Part shown: in pieces, positions 8,120 through 63,233 of the stretch
How positions within the stretch are numbered: position 1 is the first letter of the stretch
Layout of the letters: every line of letters starts with the position of its first letter
NCBI RefSeq assembly: GCF_006345805.1
Contig: NC_043003.1
Span: forward strand, 78,554,001-78,618,000
Direction of reading: 5' to 3'
Source of the DNA: Octopus sinensis
Taxonomy: Eukaryota
Length of the DNA stretch: 64,000 nucleotides
Position numbers and translations under genes: made by a program
Notes under the pieces: model-generated
Seen by the model: only the letters and a program-made list of their open reading frames with translations
Databases searched by the model: none
Told to the model about the DNA's origin: nothing

Positions 8120-10205
8120 AACGAGTAGCTGTAACAGTCCCGCCTCGTTTTGCTTGTGGCGGCAACAGTACCACTTCAAGTATATGAGAAGTACTGAAAG
8201 ATGGATTTTACTCGAAAGTGTAGAGAATTGGTAATTGGTCTATCCTGAAAAAGAAACCTTGTCTCTGGGATGCAGTCTTAGCTATGTTATATAAGAATAG
8301 TCACCCAACAACGGTAACCGGAGATTGTAAGGTTTAATATTTGAAATGACTTTGAGGATTTTAGCTGCATGCTGTTTCCACTCTAGAGATAGTGAGGTGC
8401 TATATTGTTTCTTTGATATTATATGAATTTGTGCTTTTGTACTGTTGGGGATGAACTTATATCTCCAATGAGGAATGTTTTCGAGATGTACGTTTATGGA
8501 AGTCGCGCAGGTTTGACGTGAAGTATCTTGGTGACATGTGGATTACGTCTGTATACGGAGGAGGAGGGGGATAGGCACAAGCATTATTGAAGGTGACGGT
8601 AAGTAGATCGTTAATTAGCACGCCGGGCGAAATGCTTTGTGGTATTTCGTCTGCTGCTACGTTCTGAGTTCAAATTCCGCCGAGGTCGATTTTGCCTTTC
8701 ATCCTTTCGGGGTCGATTAAATAAGTACCAGTTACGCACTGGGGTCGATGTAATCGACTTAATCCGTTTGTCTGCCCTTGTTTGTCCCCTCTGTGTGTAG
8801 CCCCTTGTGGGCAGTAATAAAACAGGTAAGTATATCGTTAATATTTCGTCTGCCGCTGCGTTCTGAGTTCAAATTCCGCCGAGGTCGACTTTGCCTTTCA
8901 TCCTTTCGGGGTCGATTAAATAAGTACCAGTTACGCATTGAGGTCGATATAATCGACTTAATTCGTTTGTCTGTCCTTCTTTGTCCCCTCTGTGTGTAGC
9001 CCCTTGTGGACAGTAATAAAACAAGTACGTATATCGTTAATATTTCGTCTCCCTTTACGTTCTGAGTTCAAATTCCGCCGAGGTCGACTTTACCTTTCAT
9101 CCTTTCAGGGTCGATTAAATAAGTGCCAGTTACGCACTGGGGTCGATATAATCGACTTAATCCGTTTGTCTGTCCTTGTTTTGTCCCCTCTGTGTGAGCA
9201 GTAAAGAAATAGGCAAGTAGATCGTTAATACATAGGAAGGAAGGAGCTGATGAGATGTAGCCTAACGTTTATAGAAGGAGGGTTAAAAAGAGAGAGAGAG
9301 AGAGAAAGTCAGGACGAGGTGAGAGAAAAGGAAGGCCCTTAGGCAATTTAGTTACGAATTTCTCACAAATGAAAGCTTGGCTAATTAACATCAAGCAACA
9401 ACATTGCTTTCGTCGAATTTCTGAAGGTCGTGGGATCATTGAGTAACGGAAAATTTAAGAATAGATCTCAGAAGATAGAGCTTCACGGAAGCTGAAGTGG
9501 TGATTGCTGGTGAAGGAGAAAGTGATTGAAGGTGTTGAAAAACTGATTAGTAGCAACATTTCTCCGCTAACTTTTGAACTGTTGTAAGTGAAAACAGTAG
9601 GTCAATAGTGAATCATATCAGAAAGGTGATCCTTCTTGGGAATGGGACGTACTGTTACATGTTTCCAAAGATGCGATTATACCTCTGTAATGATACAAAA
9701 ATTGACGTAATTAGCAAAGACAGGAACTTATTCTAGAGCCCGCCTTTTGAGGGTAATGGAAGGAGCATTGCCAGAGTCTGTAGCATTATTATTTTGAAGC
9801 AACTTGAAGTGTTTCTGCATTTGGTCTGTATGTGTAGATAGAGGTGAAACGTGTACGAAGAAGAAAGCTTTTGTGAAGTTAAGTGCATAGCAGGCAACTT
9901 AAATACAAACTTTCCCTGCAGAAGTACTACCTATAGATTCCATAAAGCTGGTAATCTCCAGGCAAGGGCTCAGAATGACAAATACAATTGGATATAATGG
10001 AAGTCTTGCGGACTGTGTGATGCCTGAAGGCATCTTTAGCTGAATGGATAGTAATGTTCTATGAGTTGAGGAGATGGCAATCTACAATACACACGATCAA
10101 CAATACATAAGGCAAACCCACATAACTCTATCGTTGATGGAGGCAAGTGAATATCAGTGCCATTGAGTTTTGGCTGGATATTCTGGTATGAGATGATGAG
10201 TAGCG
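8120..10205 (-). mobile_element. Highly decayed LINE reverse-transcriptase remnant (Jockey/L2/CR1 group), interrupted by SINEs
   Basis: Minus-strand VRPIPKKDHLSDMIHY*P near 9600-9655 resembles the PIPKKGD...NYRPI motif; many stops; boundaries uncertain. Confidence 0.5.
8616..9212 (+). mobile_element. Three tandem copies of tRNA-derived SINE family A
   Basis: Repeated GTTCTGAGTTCAAATTCCGCCGAGGTCGACTTTGCCTTTCATCCTTTCGGGGTCGAT core; flanked by AAGTAGATCGTTAAT duplication. Confidence 0.92.
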
Positions 10206-15014: not shown

Positions 15015-15046
<32 letters not shown>

Positions 15047-15134
15047 GTATATTTATATATATATATATATATTATATATATATGTATATTATATATATGT
15101 ATATGTGTATATATATATATGTATATATATATAC

Positions 15135-15205
<71 letters not shown>

Positions 15206-15247
15206 TATGCATATATATATATATATACACACACACATATAAATATA

Positions 15248-15329
<82 letters not shown>

Positions 15330-15378
15330 TGCATATATATATATACACACACATATAAATATATATATGTATATACAT

Positions 15379-15409
<31 letters not shown>

Positions 15410-15598
15410 CTAAGCAATAAAGGGTTTAGCAACGAATTGCCTTACTACAGACCGAATTTAGAAATAGCAGTCAAAGAGTTATAGCTATTTCTTCTACTAA
15501 AAAGGGAGATCTCAGTAAAAAACACAGCAATTGGAAGGCAGACACAAACAAGTAAGAGAGAATGAATTGACGGCAATCTATCATACAATTTTAAGTTA

Positions 15599-15700
15599 TC
15601 TACGGACGCACGTTTCGAAATCAAGTTTTTAGGAAAGCATAAGAATTAAATATTAAATAATTCTACCTTACCCAAACTATTCTTTTCTCTTCAGCGTAGA
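15599..15700 (-). ncRNA. Type I hammerhead ribozyme, second intact copy
   Basis: Reverse complement of the 16671-16770 motif with a 2-nt longer stem II; core intact. A third, truncated and mutated copy lies at 16197-16245. Confidence 0.85.
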
Positions 15701-16670
15701 ATACTATAATCATAAATGATTATATATTGAATTTTGAGATACTAGAAGGCACCAACTCAACTCAGTATCAGAGCGCGCTAGAATCCTCAACTAGTATCAC
15801 CAAATTCAAAGTGTGAATGAAAAGATTGTGTCACCAGCCCCTTCCCACCCGCGTGTAGCCAAAACAAGATGCTGTGGTCATCTACCGAGATAAAATATGG
15901 TTATCCGTAATAATGAAGGGTGAAATTAATTAATTTGGAATAATTATCAATTACACCAAGTAGTCTTCGGCATGTAAAAGCCTCGTTCGAGGAAAATTTA
16001 AGTAATACTAAGCAATAAAGGGTTTAGCAACGAATTGCCTTACCACAGACCGAATTTAGAAATAGCAGTCAAAGAGTTATAGCTATTTCTTCTACTAAAA
16101 AGGGAGATCTCAGTAAAAAACACAGCAATTGGAAGGCAGACACAAACAGGTAAGAGAGAATGAATTGACGGCAATCTATCATACAATTTTAAGTTATCTA
16201 CGGACGCACATTTCGAAATCAAGTTTTTAGGAAAGCATAAGAATTGCTATGTTTTTTACTGAATCTCCCTTTTTAGTAGAAGAAATAGCTATAACTCTTT
16301 GACTGCTATTTCTAAATTCGGTCTGTGGTAAGGCAATTCGTTGCTAAACCCTTTATTGCTTAGTATTACTTAAATTTTCCTCGAACGAGGCTTTTACATG
16401 CCGAAGACTACTTGGTGTAATTGATAATTATTCCAAATTAATTAATTTCACCCTTCATTATTACGGATAACCATATTTTATCTCGGTAGATGACCACAGC
16501 ATCTTGTTTTGGCTACACGCGGGTGGGAAGGGGCTGGTGACACAATCTTTTCATTCACACTTTGAATTTGGTGATACTAGTTGCGGATTCTAGCGCGCTC
16601 TGATACTGAGTTGAGTTGGTGCCTTCTAGTATCTCAAAATTCAATATATAATCATTTATGATTATAGTAT

Positions 16671-16770
16671 TCTACGCTGAAGAGAAAAGAAGTTTGGGTA
16701 AGGTAGAATTATTTAATATTTAATTCTTATGCTTTCCTAAAAACTTGATTTCGAAACGTGCGTCCGTAGA
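16671..16770 (+). ncRNA. Type I hammerhead ribozyme with long stem II
   Basis: Stem I TCTACG/CGTAGA; core CTGAAGA (16677-16683); stem II 16684-16752 (GAAA/TTTC, AAGTTT/AAACTT, AGAATT/AATTCT); GAAA 16753-16756; CGTGCG; GUC cleavage triplet ending at 16764. Confidence 0.85.
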
Positions 16771-17066
16771 TAACTTAAAATTGTATGATAGATTGCCGTC
16801 AATTCATTCTCTCTTACCTGTTTGTGTCTGCCTTCCAATTGCTGTGTTTTTTACTGAGATCTCCCTTTTTAGTAGAAGAAATAGCTATAACTCTTTGACT
16901 GCTATTTCTAAATTCGGTCTGTGGTAAGGCAATTCGTTGCTAAACCCTTTATTGCTTAGTATTACTTAAATTTTCCTCGAACGAGGCTTTTACATGCCGA
17001 AGACTACTTGGTGTAATTGATAATTATTCCAAATTAATTAATTTCACCCTTCATTATTACGGATAA

Positions 17067-17159
<93 letters not shown>

Positions 17160-17756
17160 GTTTATATATATATATATTTATATATATATTTGTATGTATA
17201 TACATATATATATTTATATGTGTGTGTATATATATATATATGCATATATGTATGTATCTATCTATATAATTGGTCGCACTCAATGTAAGTGTTTTGCTTA
17301 TTCGCCGGTTCCCTTCAGAATAGCGCTTTGGGGACGACTGCCTCATAGCACTGAGTGTTTTAACACCCAGTGCTATGCGTGGGATCATTGCACTGCTAGG
17401 GCATTCACTCATTTTCTCATCTTTGTTAAATTTTTATCGATAAAAATTCTTATGCAGATGAATTTGTAGCAGCTGATGTTTCCTGAGTTGTAGCTGACGT
17501 CTCCGGTATTCCAGTTGAGAAATTTGCACGAGTTTTTCTTGAATATTATAATAGAGATCTAGTAATTATTTTTCAATACCAAATCTTTCAATTTTTTTTT
17601 TTTCGTTTACTGTGTATTGAGTATGGCTTTGAAGCAGTCGATTATTTGCAGGCTGGGTTTTGTCGCAGTGCACTGTGCCTTGAGAAATGTCGGGCCCGAG
17701 CTGACCAATGCCTAATGAGTAAATTTGTTGAAAGGAAACTGTGGAAATCTGTCGTA

Positions 17757-25890: not shown

Positions 25891-28082
25891 TAGTTTAACA
25901 CTCGGCCACCTAAAAAGAAAAAGAGAAAAAAAATGGTGCAATAGACGTAAAAAAATGTGTAGTAAACGAATCCGAAAACCAAAATTTGCGCAAACGAACC
26001 GGCGGTGAGGAGAGAACTTTCGGAAAATTCACACGATCCGATTTTTCCCCCGTAACTTTCAGGATAATGGATATCTTTTAATAAAAATTTATATAAGTAC
26101 CTTTCAAACGGCATAGATTACGATTATAAGGAAATTAGTGGGGAAAATTTTTTCGAAAGGTGTGGAGAGGATTTTGAGAAAATTCACACGATCCAATTTT
26201 TTCCCTCATAACTTTCAGGAAAACAGGTATCTTTTAATGAGAGTTTATACAAATACTTTTCAAACGGCATAGATTACAATTATAAGGAAATTTGTTGGAA
26301 AAAGCTTGTCCAAGAGGGTAGAGAGAGGAGTTTCGAATCAAGAAGACCACATAAGTTGGAATTTCTCCGTTTTGACGGGGATTTTTACAATTGTTTTTCA
26401 CCACAGCCTTCAAAATGATGAAAAACGGTTTGGAAAATGATGATACCAATGGACCAAACGCGTGCTCATTTGGTGGGATATAAGCACCAACAAAAAAATG
26501 GTAATTCAAATTTTTATCCCCATCTTAATTAAGTGAGGCCGTGTGTGTGTAAGAAAAAAAAATCTTCTAACAGAAAAGTATACAATTAAAATTAATTATC
26601 TTTTATATACCTATACTTTTTTTAAATCACTGTGGTTGAAAGCCAGAAATGACCCCAGGCTCTCCAATATTTTAAATTATAAACAGAAACAATCAGGGGC
26701 GGGGAGTGGTTTTGAAAAAAATCATAAATTTTCAATTTTTTTTTTATAGTATAAATGTGTTTATGGGGAGAAAAATATTCATTTCTGCTCTTGGCACAAG
26801 GGCCGAAATTTTGGGGGAGGAGGCCAGTCGATTATATCAACCCCAGTACACAACTGGTACTTAATTTATCGATCCTGAAAAGACGAAAGGCAAAGTCGAC
26901 CTCGGCGACATTTGAACTCAGAACGTAACGGCAGACGAAATACCTATCTCTTTACAACCCACAAGGGGTTAAACACAGAGAAGACAAACGGATTAAGTCG
27001 ATTATATCGACTCCAGTGCGTAACTGGCACTTATTTAATCGACCCCGAAAGGATGAAAGGCAAAGTCCACCTCGGCGGAATTTGAACTCAGAACGTATCG
27101 GCGGATGAAATACCTATTTCTTTACTACCAACAAGGGGCTAAACGCAGAGGGGACAAACAAGGCCAGACAAACGGAATAAGTCGATTACATCGACCCCAG
27201 TGCGTAATTGGTACTTAATTTATCGACCCCGAAAGGATGAAAGGCAAAGTCGACCTCGGCGGAATTTGAACCGAGAACGTAACGGCAGACGAAATACGGC
27301 TACGCATTTCGCCCGGCGTGCTAACGTTTCTGCAAGCTCACCGCTTTGATGGGGAGAAAGAAATTGAAAAACATCAATGAATGCGAGAGTGAGCAAGAAA
27401 TGAGGAGGGTTGTCTTGAGATATGCTAGAAACAACAGCCAAATCTCCCTTTTTTTCTGAGAAGATATTTACAATTTTTTTTAATACCAAAAAGGATCCTC
27501 CCACAGTTTATAAGTGCAAAAAATTGGCCAAAATCGGTTCGGAGTTGGGATGGGGGAGTAAAAAAAAAATGAGCTTATGTGGTCTTCCTGACCCGAAACA
27601 CCGTTTTTCGAAACTCCCCACCCCACACTCCGGAAACAATTTTCTTCACAAATTTCTTTATAATCATGATCTATGCCGTTTGAAAAGTATTTGTATAAAC
27701 TTTCATGAAAGTTATGAGGGAAAAAATCGGATCGTGTGAATTTTCCCCAAACCCTCTCTCTATCCCTTCGGAAAAAACATTTTCCCCACAAGACTTATAA
27801 TCGTAATCTATGCCGTTTGAAAGGTATTCATATAAGATTTCATTAAAAGATATCCATTTTTCTGAAAGTTATCGGGGTGGGGTGGGAGGAATCGGATGGT
27901 GTGAATTTTCCGAAAGTCTTCTCCCCCATCCCCGGTTCGTTTGCGCATATTTTGATTTCCAGATTCTTTCTCTACACACCTTTTGTACACCTATTACATT
28001 TATTTATTGTTTAAATTTTATTTATTTATTTATTATTATTTTGGGTTGTTTTTTTTTTTTTTTGTGGCAGGGTGTGAAACTA
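25891..28082. mobile_element. Fold-back-type non-autonomous DNA element with ~470-510-bp modular inverted arms
   Basis: Termini TAGTTTAACACTCGGCCAC / TAGTTTCACACCCTGCCAC (reverse complement). Arms 25891-26355 and 27574-28082 each hold two AATTCACACGATCC...TTCAAACGGCATAGAT subrepeats. Another fragment lies at 23145-23262. Confidence 0.8.
26780..27345 (-). mobile_element. SINE family A, tandem trimer nested in the fold-back element
   Basis: Three consecutive reverse-complement cores. Confidence 0.9.
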
Positions 28083-60300: not shown

Positions 60301-63233
60301 TTTCTTTGACGTTAACTTCTCACATTTTCACAAGGTCAAAAATCAGTAAGAGAGGAGTATGACCAACGAAACCAACTTCAACAAAATAATGGTTTCTACT
60401 ATAAACACAAGACCTGAAATTTGAAGGGAATGGGTTAGGCAATTACATTTACCCCAGTGCTCATCTGGTACTTTTGTATTTCATTGACCCTGAAAGGGGT
60501 GAAATCTAAAGTCCACCTTGGCAGCATTTGCTTTCAGAACATAAAGCAAGAAGAAAGGCCACTAAGCATTTGTCCAGCTGTACATTGCTGGAGAGACAAA
60601 ACCCAGGTGTGTTTACAGAATCAAATATGAACTTGTAACAAAGATACATATATAGCAGAGGCATGTGTGTCCAATACTCTCTATACTTCTACCAACTATC
60701 ATCTTTTAATGATAAATAATGATTTCTGGCATATGATAATGGCCAAATTTTTGGAAGAGGACAGTTAATAATAATAGTAATGAAATTATTGTGTACAGTG
60801 CTCAGATGCACCACAACTTGTCAGAAAGTGCGTATAAAGCATATGCAGTAATGTACAAATATCTGGGAAGTGAACAGTGTATGAGTCAAATACATGCCTG
60901 TGTGTGTATGGAGGGGAGAAAATCAGGTGTAGTGTTGGCGAATCTCAGGAAGCATGGAAGTTTTGAAGGATGCAGTGCTCCGACAACTAACAACTGATGC
61001 CCGCAGTTTGTTCCATGCTTCAGCAACTCTTAGCGTGAAAAAATGTTCCGAAAGTCATGGGAGCTGTGCTGTTTTCTGACTTTGTAAACATTTCCACGGA
61101 TGCTAGACAAGTGGAGTTTGAAAAGGTGCTCAGAGTTATTGTTAGTAAGATGGTTAATAATTTTATGGGTGTCTGCCAAGTCAGCTGCCAGACGTCGGAG
61201 TTTCAATGTATCCATGCCCAGGGAAGTAAGGCATTAATTCAATAGTATTAGACGAGTACTTAATTTGCTTGCGTATAATGTTTGCTGTCACCAAGCTGAG
61301 ATTACTACAATGGTAGAGTGTGGTAAGAAACTTGCTTCCAAAGCACATGGTTCTGGGTTCAGTCTCATTGCATGATACTGTGGGCAAATGTTTTCTATTA
61401 TAGCCTCTGGCAGCGAGCTGGCAGAAACGTTAGCATGCCGGGCGAAATGCGTAGCGGTATTTCGTCTGTCGTTACGTTCTGAGTTCAAATTCCGCCAAGG
61501 TCGACTTTGCCTTTCATCCTCTCGGAGTCGATAAATAAAGTACCAGTTTCGCACTGGGTCGATGTAATCGCTTTAATCCCTTTCTCTGTCCTTGTTTGTC
61601 CCCTCTATGTTTAGCCCCTGGTGGGTAGTAAAGAAATATATTATAGCCTCTGGCTGACCAAAGCTTTTTGAGTGAATTTGGTAGACAGAAACTGAAAAAA
61701 AGCCAGTCACATATATATATATATGTATGTGTGTGTTTGTGTCTGTATATTTCCGCCACCACTGCTCGACAACCAATATTGGTATGTTTATGTCCCTCTA
61801 ACTTAGTAGATGGGTAAAAGAGATAGAATAAGTACCAGGCTTTAAAAAAATCACTAGGGTCGATTGATTTGATTAAAAATTCAGCAAGGAAGTGCCCCAA
61901 CATGGCCGTAATCTAATGACTGAAACAAGTAAAGGGAATACAAACTGCAAACAATTTCTAGACATCATTATATGACTCCAACCTGATTTATTCTGTTTCA
62001 AACCAAATCATCTGAAAACAAATAACAATTGGATCATATCTCAATACCGCAAGGTAAGAATTATTATTTGCCATCTTTGATGGGTGTGTTATACTCACCT
62101 AATACACCTATGATAGACGTTGGTACTTAATTTACTAATCACAGGAGACATAAAATAAAGAGTTGACCATGGCACGATAAAAAAACTCAAAGCGTAAAGG
62201 GACATAACTCTATATCACATTCTTACTATCAACAGAATTTATTTTGCCGTCAATATCCAACAATAATGATTTTTAAATATAATTTGTAGAGAAGGGATTA
62301 GGTGTTGAAAGATAGATCAACTTCAATATTTGGCTGGTATTGTACCTTATAAATCACAGGCAGAAAAAGAAATGGCAAAGTCAATTCAGGTAGGATTTAC
62401 CTAATAATAATAATAATCTTTTCTACTACAGGCACAAGGCCTGAAATTTTGAGGGTGGGTTCTAGTCAATTACATCAAATCTAGTACTCAACTGGTACTA
62501 AATTTATTGACCCCCCAAAAGGATGAAAGGCAAAGTTGACCTCAATGGAATTTTAAATCAGAATAGAAAGTCAAGAAGAAGAAGGAGGAGAAGAAGAAGA
62601 ACAACAACAGTTTCAAATTTTCCCACAAGGGCAGCCCTTTGGGAGGAGGGGATGTGTCGATTACATCGACCCAAGTGTTCAACTGGTACTTAATTTATCG
62701 ACCCTGAAAGGATGAAAGGCAAAGTCTACCTCAGTGGCGTTTCAACTTACATCGTAGCGGCAGGTGAAATACCACTAAACATTTTGCCCAGTGTGCTAAT
62801 GATTCTACTAGTTTGTTGCCTTAATAATAATAATGATTTCAAATTTTACAAGGGCAACCATTTTGGAGGAGGGGAAGAGTCGATTATATCAACCCCAGTG
62901 TTTGACTGGTACTTGTTTTATCGACCCCTAAAAGAATGAAAGGCAAAGTCAAACTTAGTGGAATTTGAACTTAGAACGTAACAGCAAAGGAAATACCATG
63001 AAACATTTCACCCAGCATGCTAATGATTCTGTCAGCTCACTGCCTTAGTGATAATAATAATAATTGTTTAATTATTGTCTTAATTATTCAAAATGAAATT
63101 AATAGGATACACACCAAGAAAATACTTACAATGATTCTTTATCAGAAGGTGGAGTATATTTCAAAATCTTCAAAGTATTCATAATACGAAGAGCTGTCTG
63201 ATCAGGAGTTTCTTGTCTAATATCAAGTTTGTG
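33428..63233 (-). CDS. IFT81: IFT81, intraflagellar transport protein 81 homolog; 13 coding exons in window (1905 nt, 634 aa + stop), 5'-partial
   Basis: Exons with canonical AG/GT boundaries join in consistent phase. The translation follows IFT81 from the late CH domain ([36 protein letters not shown]) through the coiled coils to the conserved C-terminus (MECKKQCF...EEDRLVL*). The start exon was not found before 64000. Confidence 0.97.
33825..34142. repeat. Degenerate ~20-bp minisatellite (CCTGTCAACCCAGCTATCT-like) in the last IFT81 intron
   Basis: Recurring TGTCAACCC and CCCAGCTA words. Confidence 0.7.
34173..34330 (-). CDS. IFT81: IFT81 exon, 158 bp ([17 protein letters not shown]...DKKKTL)
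   Basis: catgtag acceptor, gtaaat donor; phase 0 to 2. Confidence 0.93.
34628..35040 (+). mobile_element. SINE family B, full length, intronic
   Basis: GGCATAGGAGTGGCTGTGTGGTAAGTAGCTTGC head to GAGTAAAA tail. Further copies at 55455-56035, 61315-61935 (split) and 63410-63798. Confidence 0.9.
37185..37304. repeat. 51-bp near-perfect hairpin formed by an inverted piece of a family C element
   Basis: 37185-37235 is the reverse complement of 37254-37304 with one mismatch. Confidence 0.92.
37589..37675 (-). CDS. IFT81: IFT81 exon, 87 bp ([29 protein letters not shown])
   Basis: ctttag acceptor, gtaagt donor; phase 0/0. Confidence 0.92.
38703..38990 (-). mobile_element. tRNA-derived SINE (family F)
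   Basis: Minus-strand head GGAGGCGCAGTGGCTCAGTGGTTAGGGCAGCGGACTCGC...GTTTCGATTCCC followed by a non-tRNA body. Confidence 0.78.
39058..39276 (-). CDS. IFT81: IFT81 exon, 219 bp ([33 protein letters not shown]...LREECK)
   Basis: cttctag acceptor, gttagt donor; phase 0/0. Confidence 0.95.
39351..39484. mobile_element. Palindromic Tc1/mariner-type MITE in (TA)n
   Basis: TA-CAGAGTGATTCAAAA...TTTTGAATCACCCAG-TA; the arms pair almost throughout. Confidence 0.8.
40345..41240. mobile_element. Cluster of family A SINE copies in both orientations
   Basis: Core on minus (40345-40560) and plus (40645-40810, 41048-41240). Other intronic copies at 36405-36552, 44922-45135, 45808-46029, 50385-50617, 59636-59928, 61409-61637, 62420-63045. 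Confidence 0.8.
42036..42185 (-). CDS. IFT81: IFT81 exon, 150 bp ([19 protein letters not shown]...[10 protein letters not shown]...NEQL)
   Basis: ttttctag acceptor, gtaagt donor; phase 0/0. Confidence 0.94.
42430..43032 (-). mobile_element. 5'-truncated CR1-group LINE (RT C-terminus and 3' UTR)
   Basis: [14 protein letters not shown]...[15 protein letters not shown]...TRGHVYK...[14 protein letters not shown]; same family at 60780-61234 (-) and 51435-51610 (+). Confidence 0.88.
44278..44424 (-). CDS. IFT81: IFT81 exon, 147 bp ([14 protein letters not shown]...GGEILRGED)
   Basis: tttcag acceptor, gtaagc donor; phase 0/0. Confidence 0.94.
44596..44691 (-). CDS. IFT81: IFT81 exon, 96 bp ([32 protein letters not shown])
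   Basis: ttttcag acceptor, gtgagt donor; phase 0/0. Confidence 0.94.
46568..46731 (-). CDS. IFT81: IFT81 exon, 164 bp ([14 protein letters not shown]...LEELENQ)
   Basis: tttgtag acceptor, gtaagc donor; phase 1 to 0. Confidence 0.94.
46783..47327. mobile_element. piggyBac-like MITE interrupted by an RTE-like LINE fragment (about 46935-47310)
   Basis: TTAA-CCCTTT start and CTAAAGGG end; left part matches the repeat at 63810-64000; the insert has [10 protein letters not shown] on the minus strand. Confidence 0.65.
47930..48400 (-). mobile_element. R4/Dong-like LINE fragment (CCHC knuckle and start of the endonuclease)
   Basis: [27 protein letters not shown] and [16 protein letters not shown]. 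Confidence 0.72.
49031..49115 (-). CDS. IFT81: IFT81 exon, 85 bp ([28 protein letters not shown])
   Basis: ctatcag acceptor, gtaagt donor; phase 0 to 1. Confidence 0.92.
51129..51239 (-). CDS. IFT81: IFT81 exon, 111 bp ([37 protein letters not shown])
   Basis: ttttgtag acceptor, gtatgt donor; phase 0/0. Confidence 0.94.
54218..54373 (-). CDS. IFT81: IFT81 exon, 156 bp ([13 protein letters not shown]...IERLKHK)
   Basis: tttcag acceptor, gtaagt donor; phase 0/0. Confidence 0.95.
54449..54669. mobile_element. piggyBac-like MITE
   Basis: TTAA-CCCTTTCGTTAC...GTAACGAAAGGG-TTAC. Confidence 0.8.
56683..56863 (-). CDS. IFT81: IFT81 exon, 181 bp ([25 protein letters not shown]...VIESYEQ)
   Basis: ttttag acceptor, gtaagt donor; phase 2 to 0; overlaps ORF 56650..56889. 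Confidence 0.95.
60780..61234 (-). mobile_element. 5'-truncated CR1-group LINE, second copy
   Basis: Nearly identical to 42440-42900. Confidence 0.88.
63130..63233 (-). CDS. IFT81: IFT81 exon, 104 bp ([34 protein letters not shown])
   Basis: ttttcag acceptor, gtaagt donor; ends in phase 2. Confidence 0.93.

Follow-up and report, generated by a model that had tools for sequence, protein, structure and literature searches.

Head-to-head insertions of a hammerhead repeat family in the Octopus sinensis genome pair two different 3' ends

How do two copies of a non-coding repeat, each longer than one unit, come to lie 5'-to-5' inside a microsatellite? The question is raised by a locus of Octopus sinensis found in a window of 64,000 nucleotides (the whole stretch of DNA that was analysed; contig NC_043003.1). 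Two arms, each of about 1.4 units of a 596-598-bp non-coding repeat, are joined there 5'-to-5' at AATT and lie inside (AT)n. It had been proposed from the window that the arms are different permutations of a greater-than-unit copy, made by reverse transcription round a circular or multimeric RNA with priming at both ends of a break. The features of the locus are listed below, the unit being numbered from U1 = window 16263.

15015-15409: (AT)n microsatellite, left target flank
15407-16245, minus strand: left arm, 839 nt, period 598, from U460 to U104, 1.41 units, ending at site A
15407-15415, minus strand: 3' end of the left arm at site A (U104); the final three bases could equally belong to the (AT)n target
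15599-15700, minus strand: complete type I hammerhead of the left arm, predicted cut between 15605 and 15604
16197-16245, minus strand: second hammerhead, 3' half only, with C>T in helix III (16210), where the left arm is truncated 5'
16242-16245: AATT common to both arms, the 5'-to-5' junction (4-nt overlap)
16242-17072, plus strand: right arm, 831 nt, period 596, from U575 to U214, 1.39 units, ending at site B
16263-16858, plus strand: reference unit U, full 596 nt, 35.6% GC, non-coding
16671-16770, plus strand: complete type I hammerhead of the right arm, predicted cut between 16764 and 16765 (U502/503)
16963-17072, plus strand: 'tail' of about 110 nt, from site A (16962) to the site B zone (17057-17072), present at the right-arm end only
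17069-17268: (AT)n microsatellite, right target flank

These coordinates, and the identity of the two arms at 717 of the 724 positions of their common sequence, bear out the original prediction of two greater-than-unit arms joined 5'-to-5' through AATT. The arms end in ...GCTTAGTAT (left) and ...GGATAACCATAT (right), and each runs into an (AT)n array. A motif scan of the whole window showed two complete hammerheads, one per arm, as had been predicted. The longest ATG ORF of the unit is 37 aa, there was no match to a Penelope-like element (PLE) in the window and no RT/GIY-YIG ORF is attached to the repeat, which agrees with the earlier description of a non-autonomous ribozyme retroelement. No contig bridging 16248-16259 was found in any of four public runs, bearing in mind that contigs prove presence and not absence, and the window insertion may be private to the assembled animal. 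Since neither arm carries two complete hammerheads, the locus is more likely to be a product than a source of circles.

In the right arm, helix I (16671-16676 pairing with 16765-16770) is followed by the core CUGAAGA (16677-16683), a long helix II of about 70 nt, GAAA (16753-16756), a short helix III with a self-complementary loop and GUC (16762-16764). The open helix is helix I, hence the assignment to type I. Of the 60 Rfam matches obtained at E<=10, none was to a hammerhead family, probably on account of the ~70-nt helix II. The identity of the hammerhead in the unit is supported by its motif, fold and covariation. Older subfamilies, 67-80% identical, are present in the same genome, and in 39 stretches of these helix I, the core and helix III had a mean identity to the window copy of 86%, compared with 70% elsewhere. 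Nineteen copies were aligned; position N7 was the only variable position of the CUGANGA box and loop III mostly alternated among self-complementary versions. Pairing was kept in 98.7% of cells and 3 of 12 pairs were changed on both sides, figures to be taken as support and not as a probability, the 19 copies being mutually related and chosen by motif search. Judged from these sequences, the hammerhead is under selection. Hammerheads with a helix III of 1-2 bp and a palindromic loop have been described as acting as dimers (PMC4209133). Given that helix III here has 2 bp and a self-complementary loop, RNA of the window family would probably cleave, by analogy, as a dimer. A pattern search for the same helix I with a shorter helix II found three places, all of them non-coding relatives.

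Searching the 2.72-Gb genome with the unit gave 1,242 first-look candidates, which is not a copy number; 40 were scored, and their full-length matches to the unit were 93-100% identical. The repeat family is large, young and dispersed. Eighty loci were mapped, comprising the window, 39 from the whole-unit search and 40 of 42 new places from further searches (one probable duplicate and one further place were left out), and arms of less than 90% identity were dropped to leave 123. The loci are the best matches to the window copy and the sample leans young and long. The 3' ends of 110 of the 123 arms fell in two zones about 100 nt apart, with 69 in zone A (U84-115), 47 of them at U104, 41 in zone B (U193-214) and 13 elsewhere. 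The 5' ends were spread over all twelve 50-nt bins. The (AT)n target that had been proposed was recovered, the 3' flanks being (AT)n-like for 112 of 123 arms with the ends placed at short AT matches. Two internal RT start sites, the spacing of which corresponds to the tail, are described for a PLE by Frangieh et al. (PMC11167929), and zones A and B correspond to this PLE 'tail'. The two window arms do therefore differ in their end points as originally noted, but they are not free permutations: their 3' ends are two sites preferred throughout the family, matching the PLE tail, and the 5' ends are ordinary truncations. The ordinary pLTR arrangement, in which fixed ends are attached to a Penelope ORF, was also checked for, and no PLE ORF was attached to the repeat at the 80 loci. 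A PLE fragment lay near the repeat at five of the 80, at distances of 125-3,067 nt, none being continuous with it in sense.

Two observations on individual copies may be added here. At L267:2843-2914 (G000:C10) a 13-nt segment of the unit is repeated several times head-to-tail ahead of the 5' end of one copy, which looks like telomerase-style slippage and re-copying by the RT. At least half of the sampled words of the unit (window 16477-17068) were found in public runs under seven organism labels, which suggests that close relatives of the family exist in other species or labels.

The 123 arms group as 38 head-to-head pairs and 47 single arms. The pairs comprised 29 A+B, five A+other, three B+other and one other+other; neither A+A nor B+B was seen. 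None of 100,000 shuffles reached 29 A+B pairs and the shuffles averaged 14 same-class pairs. Of the single arms, 38 of 47 ended at A. One of the queries used for the extra loci favours B arms; among the 40 loci for which the whole unit was the only query there were 11 A+B and no same-class pairs among 15, and 24 of 26 single arms ended at A. The older subfamilies, examined by eye, were also mostly A+B (L101, L105, L108, L109, L111, L117 and L291), the exceptions being L116, which is B+B, and L292, which is A+A with extra rearranged pieces; L104, L112 and L119 have one end elsewhere. The pairing supports priming from both ends of the break, as in the original prediction.

Judged by BLAST ends, the arms overlapped by 1-12 nt at the junction in 26 pairs, abutted in eight and were separated by a gap in four. 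The B arm passes site A in 27 of the 29 A+B pairs, and arm lengths within pairs showed no correlation (rho 0.11, p 0.57). In 13 of the 29, including the window locus, neither arm is nested in the other, and DNA fold-back was rejected for these. An inverted copy, with the tail often at one end only, has already been drawn by Craig et al. (PMC8557442), and literature searches, of a scope that left supplements aside, found no prior count of the exclusion of same-site pairs. The head-to-head shape is therefore already known and the counted A+B rule is the addition. Nor can the shape be used as a sign of a circle, as had been suggested, because PLEs are already known to show it (PMC8557442, Fig. 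2 legend), and it also occurs in L145, a two-armed, ORF-bearing PLE copy ending A+B (a single case). At L060:4082-5724 two head-to-head insertions about 100 bp apart have common, otherwise private variants, and may have arisen in one event.

Our main reading, to which we give a probability of roughly 0.55, is that a protein-free hammerhead repeat is mobilised by a PLE and that both ends of an (AT)n break are primed on one RNA, most likely a one-unit circle. The parts of this reading differ in strength. We hold with high confidence that the element is non-autonomous and of PLE type, and consider it likely that the two break ends prime at A and at B on RNA of common origin, while a covalent circle as the usual template is an even bet. 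The mobilising enzyme would probably be a Penelope-like RT-endonuclease of Neptune type. In the proposed sequence of events a copy with two hammerheads would be transcribed, the RNA would cleave itself and the monomer would be ligated. A PLE protein, probably a dimer, would bind the tail region and cut both (AT)n strands, whereupon cDNA synthesis would begin at site A from one DNA end and, from the other, at site B some 100 nt further downstream. Both cDNAs would run upstream through the former cut site and stop at random; the B strand would either displace the A strand or be made on a sister RNA of the same origin. Joining of the cDNA ends at 0-5 nt of microhomology would give the head-to-head shape, and extension of only one end would give a single arm, usually ending at A. 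Cutting and extension of both strands have been described, with a dimer predicted (PMC11167929). A broader proposal is that all PLEs integrate symmetrically, by means of a dimer and a circular, hammerhead-made RNA, with one fixed start site per break end and both cDNAs rolling round the circle to generate pLTRs, tails and inverted copies. This we regard as speculative and somewhat doubtful; if the symmetric reaction were true, the window family would be a genome-scale record of PLE integration.

The nature of the template was approached through sequence variants, scored at positions represented two or more times in a locus. There were 137 alleles present in every copy of their locus, 16 in some and 192 in one, four of the 16 partial alleles coming from L264, which has two separate insertions. 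Divergence was 0.63% within an arm, 0.70% between the arms of a locus and 1.38% between loci; the values for 'diagnostic' sites (1.2%, 3.3% and 21%) are partly circular since these sites were picked as fixed. The shared fixed variants and the low divergence indicate that both arms came from one source. Fixed variant sets were diverse, 32 distinct sets occurring in 57 loci, and the pattern indicates a lineage that has passed many times through a single unit. The cut site was crossed cleanly, with one indel within 12 nt in 157 crossings against 3.1% of other 12-nt windows, and only five of 123 5' ends lie in U500-515. Clean crossing and uniformity are what a ligated circle predicts, and circular templates have been proposed for PLEs and for retrozymes (PMC4209133; PMC7229834). 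On the uniformity within loci the circle that was originally suggested is still plausible.

Some variants do not follow this pattern. L045, L059 and L252 each have one variant in unit -1 of both arms and lack it in the other units, a register match expected by chance about 1 time in 16 (an estimate). Eight more variants are partial within an arm, L037 is mixed, and in L042, L031 and L066 variants are common to adjacent units. These register-matched and block-wise variants can be explained by a linear or mixed multimer, by a dimer circle or by subsequent gene conversion, and are not predicted by a pure monomer circle. The array at L042:2624-7401 has eight units with variants in blocks of neighbouring units, which suggests local duplication after insertion. 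Linear RNA from 33 of the 123 arms, including the window right arm, could template at least one unit, so that length alone does not demand a circle. In contigs from four of 14 public runs presumed to be RNA, the head-to-tail joint fits tandem and circle alike.

The alternative that survives best, which we nonetheless think unlikely, has the same two-end priming, with a linear multimer left uncut as the template. This would be transcribed from longer master arrays that DNA-level homogenisation had made uniform, and the hammerhead would do no more than trim or regulate the RNA. The three register-matched inter-arm variants and the blocks in L042 are in its favour, as are the 33 arms long enough to act as linear masters. 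For an anole PLE in vitro, hammerhead cleavage was dispensable and mostly uncut RNA was used (PMC11167929), and local amplification into tandems has been proposed by Li et al. (10.64898/2026.07.22.740005). However, many separately homogenised masters would be required to supply 32 distinct fixed sets in 57 loci, and the 192 single-copy variants, against 16 partial ones, have escaped homogenisation. Nor can a linear multimer lengthen arrays: 19 arms have at least two units and only eight could template that length.

Another possible template is a linear monomer cut by the hammerhead, which the RT would re-read by jumping, once at its 5' end, to the 3' terminus of that RNA or of a sister molecule. 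It would account for the uniformity within loci no less well than a circle. In three arms the alignment begins at U505, just past the cut site, and one of them has a target-like start. End-to-end jumping is known for R2-type RTs, and such jumps usually leave extra or missing bases. The single indel in 157 crossings and the lack of a clear 5'-end pile-up at the cut site among the 123 arms make this explanation improbable. Finally, that the head-to-head shape arose by DNA-level fold-back, later rearrangement or assembly artefact is very improbable, for although the window junction was unbridged by contigs in the four public runs and two differences from the family fall within the initial 21 nt of the right arm, there are 38 pairs at 80 loci with a separate junction in each, 13 of the 29 A+B pairs are non-nested, and older subfamilies as well as an ORF-bearing PLE show the A+B rule again.

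As likely drivers, intact, young PLEs with open RT + GIY-YIG frames of 775-781 aa are present in the genome, and by the cysteine motif between RT and endonuclease, compared by eye with the description in PMC8557442, we call them Neptune-type. In two of these families the 3' ends fall at a pair of positions 35-40 nt from each other, followed by (AT)n and downstream of a hammerhead-like motif. No autonomous PLE with the unit sequence was found in 70 PLE stretches (L070-L099 and L120-L159), drawn from the 150 of 5,029 GIY-YIG and 144 of 16,614 RT candidates that were scored. Three further leads were discarded. Matches in L092/L132, L134 and L147, considered as pLTR kin, were read as separate insertions of older relatives. 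Antisense AT-rich matches to PLE stretches were weak (E 0.03-0.09) and were set aside. A CTCG...CGAG hairpin after site A, considered as a trait common with Neptune tails, is not conserved in sequence in the older subfamilies.

The 10-mer TTTCACCCTT (window 17043-17052) stands just before site B here and in most older relatives, and it is also found in one autonomous PLE family (L140:1050-1160). It could be an RT recognition motif or a chance match, and is only a lead to PLE kinship. The 781-aa Neptune-type family (L120:1674-5374 and L124:3739-7439) has an upstream frame of 479 aa overlapping the RT frame, of equal length in the two copies and with only a weak Pfam match; canonical PLEs, in contrast, are described with one ORF. 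The hammerhead-like motifs of autonomous PLEs (L125, L126, L130 and L140-L145) have U3-A8 in place of the usual C3-G8.

Where does the family stand among known elements? Animal retrozymes have been argued to be non-autonomous PLE derivatives by Li, Clavereau and Pollet 2026 (10.64898/2026.07.22.740005), who give consensus lengths of 51-972 bp, whereas Cervera and de la Pena 2020 (PMC7229834) give units of 150-450 bp. The monomer of about 597 nt, first described as unusually large, lies within the former range, though above the latter. Like metazoan non-LTR retrozymes, the family consists of non-coding, low-GC (<50%) tandem units with a type I hammerhead in dispersed short arrays, and co-occurs with autonomous PLEs. 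Li et al. count as active a copy with at least two complete hammerheads, which 34 of the 123 arms have, in head-to-tail arrays; each window arm has one. The retrozymes of PMC7229834 differ in lacking so large a unit and the ~70-nt helix II, and the window family is further set apart by how often it inserts head-to-head and by its strict (AT)n target, the word 'inverted' being absent from the 2020 main text. Circular RNA has been shown for coral, mussel and axolotl retrozymes; for the window family it is proposed.

With PLEs the family has in common two 3' ends defining a tail, 5' truncation, partial tandems, an adjacent inverted copy and a microsatellite bias. It differs from the Neptune and Poseidon PLEs described in PMC8557442 and PMC11167929 in having no RT/GIY-YIG ORF and a tail of ~100-110 nt instead of 30-40 nt. 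Chlamys PLEs such as MRC1 (PMC8557442) are likewise non-coding PLE derivatives with pLTRs and multicopy head-to-tail insertions; the Chlamys/Naiad group is, however, described with permuted domains and without canonical hammerheads, whereas the window family has a type I hammerhead. Non-autonomous Chlamys PLEs are also described as resembling their own autonomous families at the 3' end, and no such kin was seen for the window family in the 70 PLE stretches. The plant LTR retrozyme differs in its type III hammerhead and its LTR-internal-LTR layout.

In LINE-1 twin priming both ends of the target prime on a single RNA, and microhomology joins the resulting cDNAs head-to-head. L033 and the second L060 insertion abut exactly at site A, as in twin priming. 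Unlike twin priming, the arms overlap in the template in 27 of 29 A+B pairs and both start sites are fixed.

On its sequence features the element works like a PLE and has the sequence traits by which non-LTR retrozymes are recognised. We conclude that it is a new family of a known class (non-LTR retrozyme, non-autonomous PLE). Literature searches for the family, with Repbase, Dfam and supplements outside their scope, returned only general PLE and retrozyme papers, and it may already be catalogued. Craig et al. (PMC8557442) regard the origin of the tandem and inverted ends of PLEs as unsolved. A circular PLE template has been proposed since 2014 without proof (PMC4209133), while the hammerhead proved dispensable in the only in vitro system (PMC11167929). 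In the many short, young insertions of this family the start site used by each break end can be counted, as can whether all units descend from one monomer, and the A+B rule is a stringent prediction against which a reconstituted PLE reaction can be checked.

Other repeats were noted in passing. Unrelated hammerhead repeats lie in the flanks of several stretches (L122:6532-8071, L123:1346, L127:7422, L148:405 and L137:1409), some beside inverted repeats, and the genome seems to hold many hammerhead-bearing repeat families. Tandem arrays of related sequence at window 8643-9196, 26826-27297 and 62611-63058, with periods of 199, 170 and 224, are probably one other interspersed repeat family.
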